The notes: generated by a model not told the origin, from the sequence alone. Counted from the first letter of the stretch, positions 10,440-16,152 are shown. The stretch: DNA of 64,000 bases from a virus (IMGVR_UViG_3300021400_000130:1-64000); one strand, 5' to 3'. Numbers and translations are program-made.

Positions 10440-10512
10440 GGGTAGGTAGCACTATGGAGTGCGGGACAAAGTCCACCGCGGGAAGTTGGTTCGATTCCAA
10501 CCCTATCCACCA
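10440..10512 (+). ncRNA. Anticodon-less tRNA-like RNA with Ala identity elements (G3:U70, A73, CCA)
   Basis: GGGTAGG/CCTATCC-A-CCA, D-arm GCAC-TATGGA-GTGC, GGAC-AAA-GTCC in place of the anticodon arm, T-arm GTTGG-TTCGATT-CCAAC. Confidence 0.75.
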
Positions 10513-10875: not shown

Positions 10876-11439
10876 ATGATTAAAGGTTTGTATAAGTGTT
10901 TTGAGCACTGGCATAAAGAGGGCACTGTTTGGTTATATAGTGATCCTCATTTTAATGATGATAAAGATCTTCTTATTCCTTTTCCAAATAGACCTTCTGC
11001 TGAAGATCAGATTAAAATGATTAATAGTAAAGTTGGTCGAAATGACCACCTTATCATTCTTGGGGACATAGGCGATATTGAATGTGCTAAGAAATTGAGA
11101 GGACACAAAGTTCTGATTAAAGGCAATCACGATTTTGGTTTGTCAAACTATGAGGGCATCTTTGAAGAAGTATATGGTGGTCCTCTTATGATAAGTGAGT
11201 CAATTATACTTTCTCATGAACCTTTAGATATAAACTGGGCGTTTAATATTCATGGACACACTCATCTTCTAAGTAAAGTAAGACCAGGTCATTTATGCGT
11301 TTGTAGTGATGTTTTAAACTATACCCCCGTTAATTTCAATCAGTTTGTTAAATCTGGCAGATTGAAGGAGATAAGACCTCTACATAGATCAACAATTGAT
11401 GAGGCAACTAAAAGGAAACAGAAAAGAAACAAGATTTAG
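10876..11439 (+). CDS. Calcineurin-like metallophosphoesterase
   Basis: SDPHF, LGDIG, KGNHD, SHEP and IHGHTH motifs. Confidence 0.9.
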   Translation: MIKGLYKCFEHWHKEGTVWLYSDPHFNDDKDLLIPFPNRPSAEDQIKMINSKVGRNDHLIILGDIGDIECAKKLRGHKVLIKGNHDFGLSNYEGIFEEVYGGPLMISESIILSHEPLDINWAFNIHGHTHLLSKVRPGHLCVCSDVLNYTPVNFNQFVKSGRLKEIRPLHRSTIDEATKRKQKRNKI

Positions 11440-12375: not shown

Positions 12376-12465
12376 GCGTCCTTAACCCGAGCGGCCTTGG
12401 GACCTGTCTTGAAAACAGTGTGTACCTGATGAGGGTATGGGGATCGACACCTCAGGGGCGCGCCA
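12376..12465 (+). tRNA. tRNA-Ser(TGA), atypical D/T loops
   Basis: GCGTCCT/GGGGCGC-G-CCA, CTGT-CTTGAAA-ACAG, variable arm, T-loop ATCGACA. Confidence 0.8.
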
Positions 12466-12478
12466 TTTAATAGATAAT

Positions 12479-12521
12479 AAAACACTCACAGCATATATAA
12501 AAGGACATAAAAAGTGTTTTG
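12479..12521 (+). promoter_or_regulatory. YACAGCA-stem element, copy 3, in the 5' leader of the Ro60-like gene
   Basis: AAAACACT-CACAGCA...AGTGTTTT-G, ending at SD GAAAGGA, 15 nt before ATG 12536. Confidence 0.65.
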
Positions 12522-12535
12522 AAAGGAAAGATAAT

Positions 12536-14059
12536 ATGAACTTTATTCATGAGATGAAAAAAACCAATGATATGAACACTCTTGTTTATACTGAAAATGG
12601 AGCTCTTGGGCATAAGAGTACGGGTAAGTATCTCCTTGACCTCAACTTCTCGGTCGCCTCTTTGCGTAGTATGAAGCCCGCAGAGATTTTTGAGAAGTTT
12701 GAAAATGCTTTCATCGAAGATCCTCGTTTGGCAATGCGTTGGCTCTTCTTCGCTCGCGATGTTAGAGGCGGTCTTGGTGAGCGTAGACTCTTCCGCATCT
12801 GCATGATGAACCTTGCTTCTAGTAATCCGGGCATGGTCAAAGCTCTTGTTACTATGATCCCTGAATACGGACGTTGGGATGATCTGTGGAGTCTTCTCGG
12901 AATTAACAAGGAAGTTGACGAAGAAATCTTTTCAGTTACTAACGATCAGCTCGTTTGTGATCTGAAAAGCTGTGACGTAGGAGAGCCTATCTCTCTTCTT
13001 GCAAAATGGCTTCCGTCCATCAATACTTCATCTAAGGAAACTCGTAACTTAGCTCACAAGTTTGTTAAGAAGTTTGATCTGACGGAGAGGGCATACCGTA
13101 TTATGCTGAGTAAGCTTCGTAAGTATCTTAAAGTTACGGAAACTCAGATGTCTAGCGGCAACTGGGACAAGATTAAGTACGAGTCTGTTCCTTCTCGTGC
13201 CAATCTTCTTTACAAAGATGCTTTCATGCGTCATGATTCAGTTCGTAGAACTAAGTATCTAGAAGATCTGAAAAATGGTACTACCAAGATTAATGCTTCT
13301 ACTCTGTTTCCTCATGACATTGTTCATATGTGTCGTAAGGATGATGAGTCAGTGGAGCAGCTGTGGAAGAATCTTCCTGATTTTGTAAAAGGAGATTCCA
13401 ATACGATTGTTGTTGCCGATGGTAGCGGCTCAATGAATTGCCCTGTCGGTTCTTCTAACATTACAGCTTGGGAAGTTGCTCATGCTCTTGCTATTTACTT
13501 TGCAGAGCGTTGCTCCGGACCTTATAAAGATAAGTATATCACCTTCTCCGCGAGACCTCAGTTTGTTAATCTTAACGGAGGCACTCTATACAATAGTCTT
13601 TATATTGCTCGTAGACATAGTGAGTGCAGTAACACTAACATTGAAGCTGTATTTGATCTCATCTTGAATACAGCTATCAGAACTAATGCAAAACAGAGCG
13701 ATATTCCTAACAATATTTTAATTGTTAGCGATATGGAGTTTGATGATGCTACTTATGGTTATTCTTGGGGACCTGATAAGTTCGACAGACCTTCGGAGAC
13801 TCTCTTTGAAACCATTCGTCGTAGGTGGGAGAACGCTGGGTACAAACTTCCTCGGCTTGTTTTCTGGAATGTAAATTCTCGTACGGGCTCTATTCCTGTC
13901 ACTGAAAATGAGCTTGGCGTTGCTCTTGTTAGTGGATTCTCTCCTGCAGTTTGCAAGATTGTCCTTAGCGGTAAGCTTGATCCTTACGGTGCTCTTGTTG
14001 ATGCCCTTATGGATATGAGATATGATCCTATTGAGGAAACAATCGAGAGATTTATCTGA
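12536..14059 (+). CDS. DUF2828-type Ro60/TROVE-like protein with C-terminal vWA domain
   Basis: TENGA..STG..LDL.F N-terminus, RDVRGGLGER, YGRWDDL, AKWLPS, vWA MIDAS DGSGSM, SDMEFD, FWNV, SGFSP. True start is 12536 after the SD; the track start lies inside tRNA-Ser. Confidence 0.85.
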   Translation: MNFIHEMKKTNDMNTLVYTENGALGHKSTGKYLLDLNFSVASLRSMKPAEIFEKFENAFIEDPRLAMRWLFFARDVRGGLGERRLFRICMMNLASSNPGMVKALVTMIPEYGRWDDLWSLLGINKEVDEEIFSVTNDQLVCDLKSCDVGEPISLLAKWLPSINTSSKETRNLAHKFVKKFDLTERAYRIMLSKLRKYLKVTETQMSSGNWDKIKYESVPSRANLLYKDAFMRHDSVRRTKYLEDLKNGTTKINASTLFPHDIVHMCRKDDESVEQLWKNLPDFVKGDSNTIVVADGSGSMNCPVGSSNITAWEVAHALAIYFAERCSGPYKDKYITFSARPQFVNLNGGTLYNSLYIARRHSECSNTNIEAVFDLILNTAIRTNAKQSDIPNNILIVSDMEFDDATYGYSWGPDKFDRPSETLFETIRRRWENAGYKLPRLVFWNVNSRTGSIPVTENELGVALVSGFSPAVCKIVLSGKLDPYGALVDALMDMRYDPIEETIERFI

Positions 14060-14097
14060 TTTCTAATAGGGAGTACATTTTAACTACTCCCTTATAT

Positions 14098-14173
14098 CCG
14101 GGCGTAACCCAGCTGGTAGGGTGCGTGGTTTGGGACCACGAGGCCGGGGGTTCAAATCCCTCCGCCCGGACCA
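14098..14173 (+). tRNA. tRNA-Pro(TGG)
   Basis: CCGGGCG/CGCCCGG, CGTGG-TTTGGGA-CCACG, CCA. Confidence 0.95.
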
Positions 14174-14174
14174 T

Positions 14175-14241
14175 AAAGACGGTTACAGCAAACTTAACTG
14201 GAATAGACTTTTAATCTATAATACCAAACCTCCCGTCTTGT
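14175..14241 (+). ncRNA. YACAGCAA-stem RNA, copy 4, with a perfect tRNA-Lys(TTT) anticodon stem-loop
   Basis: AAGACGG/CCGTCTT stem, TTACAGCAA, ATAGA-CTTTTAA-TCTAT (14203-14219). Confidence 0.78.
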
Positions 14242-14294
14242 TTTAGTTGATTTTTTGATTTATTATATTATAATAAATATGTAGAATAAAATAT

Positions 14295-14446
14295 GCCTTG
14301 GCAGCTCAGATGGTTTGAGCTCCCGACTTCAAGAGATAGCTTAACAGGAAAGCAGCGTAGCTTTAGAAACGAAGATGTAAGTGCAATTCTTACTCTCTTG
14401 GCCAATAATCGGGTGATCGTTGGTTCGAGTCCAACCCAAGGCACCA
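14295..14446 (+). tRNA. Interrupted tRNA, probably Ile(TAT), with a 75-nt insert in the anticodon
   Basis: GCCTTGG/CCAAGGC-A-CCA, normal D and T arms, CCCGA-CTT[insert 14330-14404]ATAA-TCGGG; 77 nt without the insert. Confidence 0.8.
14330..14404 (+). ncRNA. Nested tRNA-like RNA (CCA-ended, loop CTTTAGA) inside the outer anticodon
   Basis: CAAGAGA/TCTCTTG-G-CCA, TA-GCTT-AACAGGA-AAGC, T-arm GTAAG-TGCAATT-CTTAC, imperfect anticodon arm. Confidence 0.75.
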
Positions 14447-14715
14447 TATAGACATTGTAAGGATTGAAAGGTGTCAGCAATTGCAAGTTGCTATCCAGTT
14501 AATTAATAAGTGTATGCGGTTCACAACCGACTCACGTACCAGTAGTTAATCTTGCATAATACATACTGGTGGGAGTGAGCACAATTCAAACACTCGAAGG
14601 GTAGATAGGGGTAGGAGCTGTAATAGTGGTACAGCGAATGGCACACAGCGACCGATTAAATACTTAGGTCATTCCACTGGTGTGCGTGTAGAGTGCGAAT
14701 TGTGAATTAGAAAGG

Positions 14716-14964
14716 ATGTCACAGATGTACAGAATTACTTTCATAAGATTAGGAAATCATTATTACTGCACGGGATATCTTGGAAAGAACCCTGACAGAG
14801 GATTTTTTACAAAAGAGTTCCAAACTATCGAAGAAGCTGTTAAGTTCTGTGATAAACTTCCTGTTGAAGTTTACATTAAATCCTTAGATAACTTTACAAA
14901 GAAGGAAAGAATAGTTTTCAATAGAAAAAGACTTAGTGTCTGGAGACACAAGAATTCATTTTAA
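14716..14964 (+). CDS. Hypothetical protein
   Basis: 82 aa ORF near SD GAAAGG. Confidence 0.5.
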   Translation: MSQMYRITFIRLGNHYYCTGYLGKNPDRGFFTKEFQTIEEAVKFCDKLPVEVYIKSLDNFTKKERIVFNRKRLSVWRHKNSF

Positions 14965-14968
14965 ATTT

Positions 14969-15038
14969 AAAGGCTCATACAGCAATTCTTTTTTATAATG
15001 CTGACTGTTCATCTGCTAACTATAAAAACGAGCCTTGT
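14969..15038 (+). ncRNA. YACAGCAA-stem RNA, copy 5, with an Asn(GTT)-like anticodon arm
   Basis: AAGGCTC/GAGCCTT stem, ATACAGCAA, GCTGA-CTGTTCA-TCTGC. Confidence 0.75.
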
Positions 15039-15052
15039 ACTTATGTTATTGT

Positions 15053-15125
15053 AAGACCCATACAGCAACTTATCTATTATATAATTATTGTAAATTATTG
15101 AATTAGATCGGAAATCGGGTCTTGT
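15053..15125 (+). ncRNA. YACAGCAA-stem RNA, copy 6, with a possible Tyr(GTA)-like loop
   Basis: AAGACCC/GGGTCTT stem, ATACAGCAA, TAATTA-TTGTAAA-TTATTG. Confidence 0.72.
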
Positions 15126-15139
15126 TTTTTAAAGTTAAT

Positions 15140-15282
15140 AAAGACGCACACTGCAAATATTTTTATAATATTTGAAAGTTTTTGTACACCCTAAACTCTA
15201 TACATCGGAAATAGTTAGATGGTAAGTAAGTTGAGTGTTCCGTTGTGGAGTATAAATTAAAGAACTAAGTCCTGCGTCTTGT
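15140..15282 (+). ncRNA. YACAGCAA-stem RNA, copy 7 (long variant, CACTGCAA)
   Basis: AAGACGCA/TGCGTCTT-G stem followed by CACTGCAA. Confidence 0.65.
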
Positions 15283-15289
15283 TTTATAT

Positions 15290-15377
15290 GCTGGTGTGGT
15301 GGAATAGGTAGACACAGCGGACTTAAAATCCGCTGGCCTTAAAAGCCGTGTCGGTTCGAGTCCGACCACCAGCACCA
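15290..15377 (+). tRNA. tRNA-Leu(TAA)
   Basis: GCTGGTG/CACCAGC, GCGGA-CTTAAAA-TCCGC, CCA. Confidence 0.95.
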
Positions 15378-15544
15378 CTATTATTAGAGTCGAGCAAAAG
15401 TCACAAGTGATGTTGGCCTAAAAAGGGTAACCGCGGCCTACTGAAACGTATGTCAGAGGAGATTTAGAAATTAAATACGAGTGATAGTATTTAGGACTCT
15501 TGTGTACTTCCGGTCTTGCTCGACCGGGCTCTAATAGTAGACCA
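15378..15544 (+). ncRNA. Long-stemmed structured RNA ending in ACCA
   Basis: CTATTATTAGAGT/GCTCTAATAGTAG, GTCGAGCAA/TTGCTCGAC and CACAAG/CTTGTG stems. Confidence 0.55.
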
Positions 15545-15648
15545 TTGGAGAAAGTCCTGCATAGAGGCGGCAACATAAAACTGTGTCAGGTCAGTTTTGA
15601 ATAAGGCGGTCTATATGGCTACCTTATGTTTTTTAACTGACACAGTAT

Positions 15649-15725
15649 GCGGGCGTAGCTCAGCTGGTTAGAGCACCTGCCTTACAAGCAGGGGGTCGAT
15701 GGTTCGAGCCCGTCCGTCCGCACCA
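15649..15725 (+). tRNA. tRNA-Val(TAC)
   Basis: GCGGGCG/CGTCCGC, CCTGC-CTTACAA-GCAGG, CCA. Confidence 0.95.
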
Positions 15726-15768
15726 ATACTGAAAACAGATCTTCTTAATCTTTTTTAAAGGAAATAAA

Positions 15769-16152
15769 ATGAAGTTTAAAACATTAACAACAGAAGACTT
15801 TGAATTGGAAGAAAAGTTTCTAAGTCCTGCAGTTAGAGCAAAGAAATATCAGAAGCATGTAATAGATCAGAAGTCATTTGGTAAACATATGACAGAAGAA
15901 AATTATGAAAAAGCGGCTGATGATCTTGCAAATAGTAAAGTAGATTACAAAACAGTACTTGGATATAAAGCCTGTGACGATAAAGGTCAAGAAGCTTTTA
16001 TAAAGTACAACACTAAGACAGAGGAGTATGTAGTCTATCATAGAGCACCTTCTGGAGAGCCTTTAATTGTTAGTTTCTATCATAGACCTCTAAGAGAGTT
16101 TACAGGAAAGAAAGCCTTAGAATATATTGATGAACTTCCAGATACGGAGTAA
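15769..16152 (+). CDS. Hypothetical protein resembling small toxin RNase domains
   Basis: YQKHV...SFG..MTEENYEKAADDL pattern and C-terminal IVSFY; precedes a CPCC-domain gene. Confidence 0.5.
   Translation: MKFKTLTTEDFELEEKFLSPAVRAKKYQKHVIDQKSFGKHMTEENYEKAADDLANSKVDYKTVLGYKACDDKGQEAFIKYNTKTEEYVVYHRAPSGEPLIVSFYHRPLREFTGKKALEYIDELPDTE

Follow-up and report, generated by a model that had tools for sequence, protein, structure and literature searches.

Our analysis of the 64,000-nucleotide (nt) viral stretch IMGVR_UViG_3300021400_000130:1-64000 (hereafter the window, whose positions serve as coordinates) revealed a transfer RNA (tRNA) gene for isoleucine, tRNA-Ile(UAU), which occupies 152 nt at 14295-14446 and is split between tRNA nucleotides 34 and 35 (34/35) by a 75-nt insert at 14330-14404 that is itself tRNA-shaped. 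The window is held by a complete 153.6-kb virus record with terminal repeats, designated G000 where the whole genome is meant. We favor, with somewhat better than even confidence, the interpretation that the insert is an intron spliced out to yield a working tRNA-Ile by protein enzymes that read its tRNA shape. An initial annotation of this DNA had proposed, as one of two options, a new kind of intron that is released by RNase P and 3' processing and whose flanking halves a repair ligase then joins. This proposal is the one best supported by the class of similar introns, the covariation and the repair genes described below, and the steps of the pathway are put forward here conditionally.

The outer tRNA is intact, as had been annotated, with an acceptor stem, a D arm, a 5-base-pair (bp) anticodon stem, a T arm, A73 and an encoded CCA; CCA is encoded in all 18 tRNA genes of the phage. 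On the plus strand, the 5' exon (14295-14329, nucleotides 1-34) contains the acceptor 5' strand, the D arm, the 5' strand of the anticodon stem and loop positions 32-34, and it is the same as the 5' part of an unsplit allele in a related phage, L021:4520-4596. The 3' exon (14405-14446, plus strand, nucleotides 35-76) contains loop positions 35-38, the 3' strand of the anticodon stem, the variable loop, the T arm, the acceptor 3' strand, A73 and CCA. Excision of exactly 14330-14404 generates a 77-nt tRNA that ARAGORN calls as Ile(tat), with a 7-nt loop containing U33, the anticodon UAU and A37. The minimum-energy fold of the 152 nt retains the outer acceptor, anticodon and T stems together with the inner acceptor and T stems. 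According to ARAGORN, the 153.6-kb genome has no other Ile(UAU) gene, making this locus the only one of the phage, and the ATA codon is common (20 per 1000 codons). Because the tRNA set of the phage consists mostly of U34 readers of A-ending codons, a tRNA-Ile(UAU) fits into it.

Relatives of the phage were gathered through the neighboring gene for a Ro-like RNA-binding protein (12437-14059), and, as the initial annotation had suggested looking for, they include both split and unsplit alleles. The unsplit allele L021:4520-4596 has 77 nt, lies at the same locus and is identical to the joined exons at 76 of 77 positions; the lone difference falls in the 3' exon, where the G-C pair 7-66 becomes G-U. 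A second uninterrupted 77-nt tRNA-Ile(UAU) was found at L020:2856-2932. Both unsplit genes stand at the same position, after tRNA-Pro(UGG), and the Ro-like proteins of L020 and L021 show ~ 75% identity. The regions flanking the gene have diverged between the window and L021, with 54% identity in the upstream spacer, 75% in the downstream spacer, 72% in tRNA-Pro and 71% in the Ro-like gene. Given the unsplit allele and junction bases that allow no shift, the insert corresponds exactly to 14330-14404 and lies between nucleotides 34 and 35, which confirms to the base both the insert and the 34/35 split of the initial annotation.

The transcription start of the unit is presumably set by a sigma-70-type promoter-like site directly upstream (14247-14274, plus strand), with 10 of 12 consensus matches and a 16-nt spacer, at the place where a promoter had been annotated. 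Promoter-like sites in the region are no more numerous than in shuffled sequence, so the case for this promoter rests on its conservation and not on the match itself: both hexamers also occur upstream of the unsplit alleles in L020 and L021.

A standard ARAGORN run called neither the outer nor the inner gene, and a run with introns allowed reported one 152-nt gene with a 75-nt intron under the label tRNA-SeC(tca) i(38,75). This label, together with the genes for tRNA(UCA) and tRNA(CUA) that occur in more distant relatives, could suggest an opal-suppressor or selenocysteine-type tRNA(UCA) with an intron at 37/38. We consider this reading, as well as an assembly artefact, to be refuted and its remaining probability negligible. 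The UCA call arises because ARAGORN forces the intron to the canonical position; the unsplit allele has a UAU loop, and the junction bases permit no shift of the boundaries. The same evidence contradicts the alternative boundaries initially considered, which would have given TCA (intron after 37) or AAT. The genome uses the standard code, with open reading frames (ORFs) under code 11 covering 86% of it and TGA in use as a stop codon that terminates 36 of 127 long plus-strand ORFs. The tRNA(UCA) of L004 was rejected as a homolog of the outer gene, the two sequences being unrelated, and a weak match between the outer 3' half and tRNA-Asn genes of relatives reflected T-arm similarity only. Misassembly, which had been named as a point to exclude, is ruled out by the presence of the same split gene in three independent assemblies: the 152 nt recur unchanged in a 148-kb ENA contig (L018) and in a Logan contig (L019), both from other samples and with Ro-like proteins 98% identical to that of the window. 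Outside the split gene these assemblies do depart from the window, being 96.9% identical to it over 2.2 kb and having another tRNA-Leu gene. A BLAST search of the locus and two other split genes against 50,697 GenBank phage records gave no match, and thus no cultured phage with the feature; searching IMG/VR for exact patterns of the outer 3' half and of the inner T arm likewise gave no match.

The inner element (14330-14404, plus strand) has a 7-bp acceptor stem (14330-14336 with 14394-14400), a 4-bp D arm (14339-14342 with 14350-14353) and a 5-bp T arm with a 7-nt loop (14377-14381 with 14389-14393) that is stacked on the acceptor stem, followed by a discriminator G at 14401 and CCA at 14402-14404. 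With the tRNA model of Rfam, the insert reaches 43 bits (E 3.4e-7), above the threshold of 29. In the Rfam alignment the anticodon arm is degenerate, with a 3-bp stem (14356-14358 with 14369-14371) and a 10-nt loop; a 5-bp anticodon stem and a 7-nt loop with U33 are absent, and ARAGORN leaves the element uncalled. The initial description of the insert as a cloverleaf therefore holds for its acceptor, D and T arms and its G-CCA end, and fails for the anticodon arm. Homologous inserts in relatives have 7- or 8-nt loops in this arm and no conserved anticodon. The inner element is tRNA-shaped and is not a decoding tRNA.

It also does not belong to the established intron types, in agreement with the initial view that it is neither a group I intron nor bounded by a bulge-helix-bulge (BHB) motif. 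No match to the group I model RF00028 of Rfam was obtained in 13500-16000 even at E up to 10, and the 75-nt insert has no ribozyme core, group I introns typically exceeding 200 nt. Position 14329 does have the U that precedes group I introns, whereas the intron ends in A (14404) and not in G. A BHB motif, with two 3-nt bulges on either side of a 4-bp helix, was found neither in the single-sequence nor in the consensus folds; in these, the inner acceptor stem directly adjoins the 5' junction, and the 3' junction is part of an unpaired stretch of 8 nt. Moreover, the split is set by the unsplit allele at 34/35 and not at the BHB-intron position 37/38. The Ro-binding module of Y RNAs and YrlA-like RNAs, which in this phage family is a hairpin with an ACAGCAA motif in place of the anticodon arm, is absent from 14295-14446.

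The window locus is one member of a widespread class found in tRNA genes of large phages of the gut. We surveyed 80 loci (1.6 Mb) comprising 10 kb either side of the Ro-like gene in related IMG/VR contigs, using ARAGORN and requiring a 7-bp stem at the insert ends followed by N-CCA. Split tRNAs, one to three per locus, occur at 26 of the 80 loci and amount to 38 distinct split genes, in which tRNAs for Ile(UAU), Leu(UAA), Lys(UUU), Gln(UUG), Arg(UCU), Asn(GUU) and Thr(UGU) are interrupted. Inserts range from 45 to 93 nt and are located at 34/35 (22 genes), 35/36 (8), 32/33 (7) and 36/37 (1). All are bounded by a 7-bp stem, with a 3' tail of N-CCA in 35 genes and N-CAA in the other 3. Such boundaries in all 38 distinct split genes exclude a chance origin. 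In 29 of 38 genes a U precedes the insert, which itself begins with G (27) or C (11), and the discriminator is never C. Every one of the 38 joined loops is a canonical 7-nt loop accepted by ARAGORN, although the isotype labels given to the split genes are often wrong because, as in the window, the program forces the intron to the canonical position.

The short inserts, or mini-inserts, hold only an acceptor stem, a small hairpin and a T arm. Examples include a 49-nt insert in the tRNA-Leu(UAA) of L020 and L060, and inserts of 45 and 56 nt in the adjacent tRNA-Pro and tRNA-Leu genes of the unrelated contig L070. When a covariance model of the mini-inserts was applied to the 1.6 Mb, 25 matches at E <=0.01 were obtained, and 25 of 25 fell within tRNA anticodon loops. 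The same model applied to the genome of the window gave one weak match, to a free-standing tRNA-like gene at 10440-10512. Mini-inserts that are close relatives of one another, with T arm and hairpin in common, occupy different tRNAs and loop positions. Furthermore, the exons in the window are nearly identical to the unsplit allele, and the nearest relatives of the insert reside in diverged outer genes. Because of this contrast in affinity and the variety of sites occupied by related inserts, the comparison points to mobile inserts that are gained or lost through precise DNA-level events. No version of the insert carrying an endonuclease was found among the ARAGORN calls of 400-1600-nt introns in relatives, which were mostly chimeras of neighboring tRNA genes and in no case had acceptor-plus-CCA ends. 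In more distant, prophage-like relatives in cultured Clostridia, inserts of this sort are absent from the 10 kb around the Ro-like gene. The genome bins of the nearest relatives are labelled Bacteroidaceae, Prevotella and Paludibacteraceae, binning being weak evidence for the host.

Two further introns of a different kind were observed in tRNA-Leu(UAA) genes of relatives, both at 34/35, with lengths of 208 nt (L041:9753-10037) and 762 nt (L139:11624-12472). In both, the 5' site follows a U and the intron ends in G, and the 762-nt intron contains an ORF of 181 amino acids. In these respects they are group-I-like, yet no Rfam group I model matched them at the gathering threshold. A separate observation concerns the T loop GGCAGCA, which is not of the TTCRANY type. 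It is present in ordinary tRNAs of many unrelated contigs (for example L062, L068, L071, L075, L079 and L085) and also in many mini-inserts.

Comparison of homologous split genes indicated that both folds are maintained. Homologs of the window insert occupy the same site of tRNA-Ile(UAU) in L128, L141 and L139, whose Ro-like proteins are ~ 55% identical to that of the window. With these four Ile genes, RNAalifold recovered both nested cloverleaves, and 14 of 38 pairs showed compensatory changes with none broken. The compensatory pairs comprise 5 of 7 in the inner acceptor stem, 2 of 4 in the inner D arm, 3 in the outer acceptor stem and 4 in the outer T arm. Two tRNA-Leu families have 7 of 45 and 19 of 39 compensatory pairs, including pairs of the outer acceptor, anticodon and T stems. 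Among 17 mini-inserts from six host tRNAs, 97.5% of cells were paired, compared to 56% in shuffled alignments and 34-43% with slid partners; their covariation score of 1.12, versus 0.25, was reached by none of 500 shuffles, and double changes were seen in 11 of 12 pairs. Kinship among the phages inflates the counts of cases and not the counts of pair types. Since outer and inner helices both covary, we conclude from these alignments that, in the split state of the gene, selection preserves the outer tRNA as well as the inner stack of acceptor stem and T arm.

Based on these features, the following pathway can be proposed. The 152-nt unit would be transcribed from the promoter at 14247-14274, and the outer and inner cloverleaves would fold independently. 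An acceptor/T-arm minihelix with N-CCA is a minimal substrate of bacterial RNase P, whose RNA pairs with the CCA, and the conserved core of all inserts consists of precisely such a minihelix followed by single-stranded N-CCA. For this reason RNase P would be expected to read the inner acceptor/T-arm stack and G-CCA and to cut at the first base of the insert, leaving a 3'-OH on U34. The prevalence of U ahead of the inserts and the lack of C as discriminator likewise suit RNase P. A cut exactly after the inner CCA would then leave a 5'-phosphate on A35, and this cut must be endonucleolytic, as the 3' exon would otherwise be lost. Candidates are a host enzyme of the RNase Z/BN type, some bacterial members of which cut after CCA, or an enzyme of the phage. 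This cut, for which the enzymes are candidates, is the weakest step of the pathway. The exon halves would remain held together by the outer acceptor, D and anticodon stems until a nick-sealing phage ligase joined them, with a phage kinase-HD protein healing the ends if the cut left a cyclic phosphate and a 5'-OH. The rejoined tRNA-Ile would decode AUA. As for the intron, it is most likely selfish and mobile, and tolerated through its clean removal. It is an even question whether the class as a whole represents a third tRNA-splicing route beside group I and BHB introns, in which a tRNA-mimic intron makes RNase P and a CCA-end-specific cut serve as the splicing endonuclease, a repair-type ligase rejoins the halves, and the introns move between tRNA genes and loop positions.

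The phage encodes enzyme types of the T4 heal-and-seal set, that is, a kinase/phosphoesterase and an RNA ligase. The ligase gene (G000:152296-153549) is of the NgrRnl type, with a PF09414 domain, an N-terminal OB domain (PHA02142) and a match to NgrRnl (5cot) at E 2.6e-32; NgrRnl of Naegleria is a nick-sealing ligase for 3'-OH and 5'-phosphate ends. A Pnkp-like polynucleotide kinase fused to an HD domain (G000:102311-103213) has the kinase domain of Clostridium thermocellum Pnkp as its nearest match. Near the ligase lies a cyclic-phosphate receiver domain (G000:150873-151181), and a phosphoesterase gene stands inside the tRNA island (10876-11439). A weak RlaP-like nucleotidyltransferase match was also seen near the ligase, in an RNA-repair stretch that covers G000:149462-153549. 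The search for a ligase, recommended with the initial annotation, thus succeeded for an NgrRnl-type enzyme and not for RtcB, which is absent from the phage genome. The T4 Rnl1 family (PF09511) gave no match in the genome in a search that also matched 0 of 14 control genomes.

Several observations weigh against splicing. Ligase genes are common throughout the phage family, including intron-free relatives, and their presence does not separate the two groups; two complete intron-bearing genomes, G016 and G024, have no match to PF09414, Rnl1 or RtcB. Because ligases occur in intron-free relatives and three ligase families are unmatched in two intron-bearing genomes, the ligase, as judged from gene content, is compatible with the splicing model and not diagnostic of it. 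The phage genome encodes no metallo-beta-lactamase RNase Z, and many bacteria make CCA-bearing 3' ends by exonucleases, which would destroy the 3' exon. Three inserts terminate in CAA and not in CCA. In addition, the exons in the window have only one change relative to L021, and they may be intact merely through recent insertion.

A possibly recent insertion, together with the failure to find in the phage genome a nuclease for the 3' cut, would also suit an account in which the insert is a selfish or accidental piece that is never removed, tRNA-Ile is dead and AUA is read by the host. As the insertion may be recent, the argument for function rests on the wider families and not on the window locus alone. 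Homologous inserts occupy one and the same site in outer tRNAs that have diverged greatly and yet, by double changes, have kept their stems paired, and 38 of 38 split genes rejoin to canonical loops. Several phages would each have to hold two or three dead tRNA genes, and the inner helices are under strong selection that a dead insert would not need. We judge it unlikely that these genes are dead.

Processing of the locus could, on the other hand, yield a useful product other than the rejoined tRNA: the released tRNA-like RNA, tRNA halves, an uncleavable decoy or reservoir against host anticodon nucleases, or a partner of the Ro-like protein. The split gene is indeed located 236 nt downstream of the Ro-like gene, with tRNA-like and Y-RNA-like elements around it. 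The interrupted tRNAs (Lys UUU, Gln UUG, Leu UAA, Ile UAU, Arg UCU and Asn GUU) and the insertion sites at 32-36 overlap with known targets of anticodon nucleases, namely PrrC, colicin E5, gamma-toxin, PaT and MazF-mt9. Moreover, the 77-nt insert at 36/37 of the tRNA-Ile(UAU) in L122 (L122:12197-12273) is a complete tRNA with a CUA (amber-reading) anticodon, called by ARAGORN and scoring 43.5 bits in Rfam; by its sequence, both nested genes of L122 may be working tRNAs. Such a product would nevertheless leave several features unaccounted for. Unsplit alleles at the same locus are ordinary tRNAs, and split and unsplit genes of the same anticodon share a locus only once, for Gln. The outer acceptor and T stems covary even though they are needed only for a whole tRNA, and just 3 of 33 inner elements are called by ARAGORN, two with a 2-base anticodon and only that of L122 complete. 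A useful product other than the rejoined tRNA therefore appears improbable to us as the explanation of the locus.

The initial annotation had also considered that a tRNA was ligated into a nuclease-cut anticodon. In this account the locus is a scar of RNA repair, in which a mature CCA-ended tRNA-like RNA was joined into a cut anticodon loop, with the chimera then converted back into DNA. The insert does span exactly +1 to CCA, the phage encodes heal-and-seal enzymes, free-standing CCA-ended tRNA-like genes are found in the same tRNA island (10440-10512) and in relatives, and the insertion sites match the cut sites of anticodon nucleases. However, the genome encodes no reverse transcriptase, and encoded CCA is normal in all 18 phage tRNAs and hence no sign of an RNA intermediate. 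The insert family also persists with covariation at the same site across phages with ~ 55% identity of their Ro-like proteins. The repair-scar account may describe how the class originated, which would be compatible with splicing, and does not explain its maintenance; as an explanation of the locus in its own right we grant it a slim chance.

The neighborhood of the split gene contains further tRNA-related elements. Between tRNA-Pro and the promoter, the segment 14176-14240 combines a closing stem of 7 bp with an ACAGCAA motif and the perfect anticodon stem-loop of a tRNA-Lys(UUU). This Y-RNA-like element is conserved ahead of the unsplit Ile gene in L020 and L021. In L087-L166, and also in L002, tRNA-like genes lie ~ 100-900 nt upstream of the Ro-like gene (for example L098:9539-9662, L139:9507-9647 and L002:3582-3712). 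They have normal acceptor, D and T arms, and the anticodon arm is replaced by a hairpin with an ACAGCAA-type motif. ARAGORN miscalls them as intron-bearing, and their inserts are not bounded by CCA. Judged by their sequence, these genes resemble Y RNAs that have a tRNA-like domain and are partnered with the Ro-like protein. The free-standing 73-nt gene at 10440-10512 has a 7-bp acceptor stem, a canonical T arm, an ACCA end and a 4-bp stem with a 3-nt loop in the position of the anticodon arm; it is possibly a relative or source of the inserted elements. In L004 (L004:2669-2728, also in L005), a 60-nt 'tRNA' with acceptor, D and T arms and no anticodon arm scores 49.6 bits in Rfam and follows the gene for tRNA(UCA). 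The suppressor-type genes of the more distant relatives are located at L004:2589-2663 for tRNA(UCA) and L007:1914-2004 for tRNA(CUA), and stop codons may be recoded in parts of the phage family. Other RNAs detected in relatives were a drum RNA (L105:7893-8004, 59 bits) and a phage tmRNA (L041:19182-19552, 132 bits).

Introns of this appearance have been noted before, so the insert does not represent the new kind of intron that had initially been considered. The tRNAs of Lak megaphages hold 'enigmatic introns', one of which, in tRNA-Thr(UGU), 'itself may encode a tRNA' and has intron-less alleles (Devoto et al. 2019, PMC6784885, Fig. 4), and a survey of 262 alternatively coded jumbo phages from 2026 mentions tRNA introns that 'could encode another tRNA' (PMC13037316). 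Both papers remark on the introns only, with no defining anatomy, class survey or mechanism, and phrase searches of the literature (for example for 'tRNA-like intron') found nothing. The window locus adds to this widespread, already noted and unexplained class and extends it to a 154-kb phage with the standard code. The Lak and jumbo-phage introns resemble those described here in being short tRNA-looking inserts in phage tRNAs, with conserved intron sequence and alleles with and without the intron. In both cases the hosts are probably Bacteroidales; for Lak this is Prevotella, and the bins of the relatives considered here are those of Prevotella, Paludibacteraceae and Bacteroidaceae. Unlike those phages, the present one is neither a jumbo phage nor a megaphage.

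The label 'enigmatic' for this class dates from 2019, and an explanation is still lacking; the locus is an unusually clean test case for it, with an unsplit allele that differs by one base, a standard code, a 152-nt unit with its own promoter, and identified candidate ligase and kinase genes. If the splicing interpretation is correct, bacteria and phages would possess an as yet undemonstrated protein-dependent tRNA splicing built from RNase P, 3'-end processing and RNA repair ligases. The widespread RNA ligases and Pnkp-like enzymes of phages would then have a routine role beyond the repair of nuclease damage.

Comparison with well-characterized systems places the proposed pathway among partly similar ones. 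Group I tRNA introns of bacteria, plastids and phages, such as that of tRNA-Leu(UAA) at 34/35, share with the present class an anticodon-loop site that is often 34/35, patchy alleles and a likely selfish or mobile nature. In contrast to them, the window insert of 75 nt ends in A and not in G and has no ribozyme core, and its removal must depend on proteins. Archaeal and eukaryal tRNA introns are likewise short, protein-dependent and located in the anticodon loop, and they are removed by two cuts followed by ligation of halves held by the tRNA body. They differ in relying on a BHB motif, a splicing endonuclease and RtcB or Trl1, whereas here the BHB is missing, the site is inside the anticodon and not at 37/38, and recognition would proceed via the tRNA shape of the intron itself; the bacterial hosts implied for the phage family are not known to have a splicing endonuclease. 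Repair of anticodon breaks in T4 (PrrC, Pnkp and Rnl1) employs a phage kinase/phosphoesterase and an RNA ligase, and both enzyme types are present here. In our case, however, the break would be programmed by the structure of the gene, a 75-nt piece would be discarded, and the ligase is of the NgrRnl/DraRnl type instead of Rnl1. YrlA-type Y RNAs beside Ro/Rsr genes provide another instance of tRNA mimicry near a Ro-like gene, and such elements flank the locus; the 152-nt locus itself is unlike them in having normal tRNA ends and no hairpin-plus-ACAGCAA module. In mascRNA from MALAT1, in mitochondrial tRNA punctuation and in the permuted tRNA genes of Cyanidioschyzon, a tRNA-shaped element sets both the RNase P and the RNase Z cut. 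Those modules yield the tRNA-like piece as their product, and their flanks do not come together again as another tRNA, whereas in the split tRNA-Ile(UAU) gene the tRNA-like piece would be the discard and the rejoined flanks the product.

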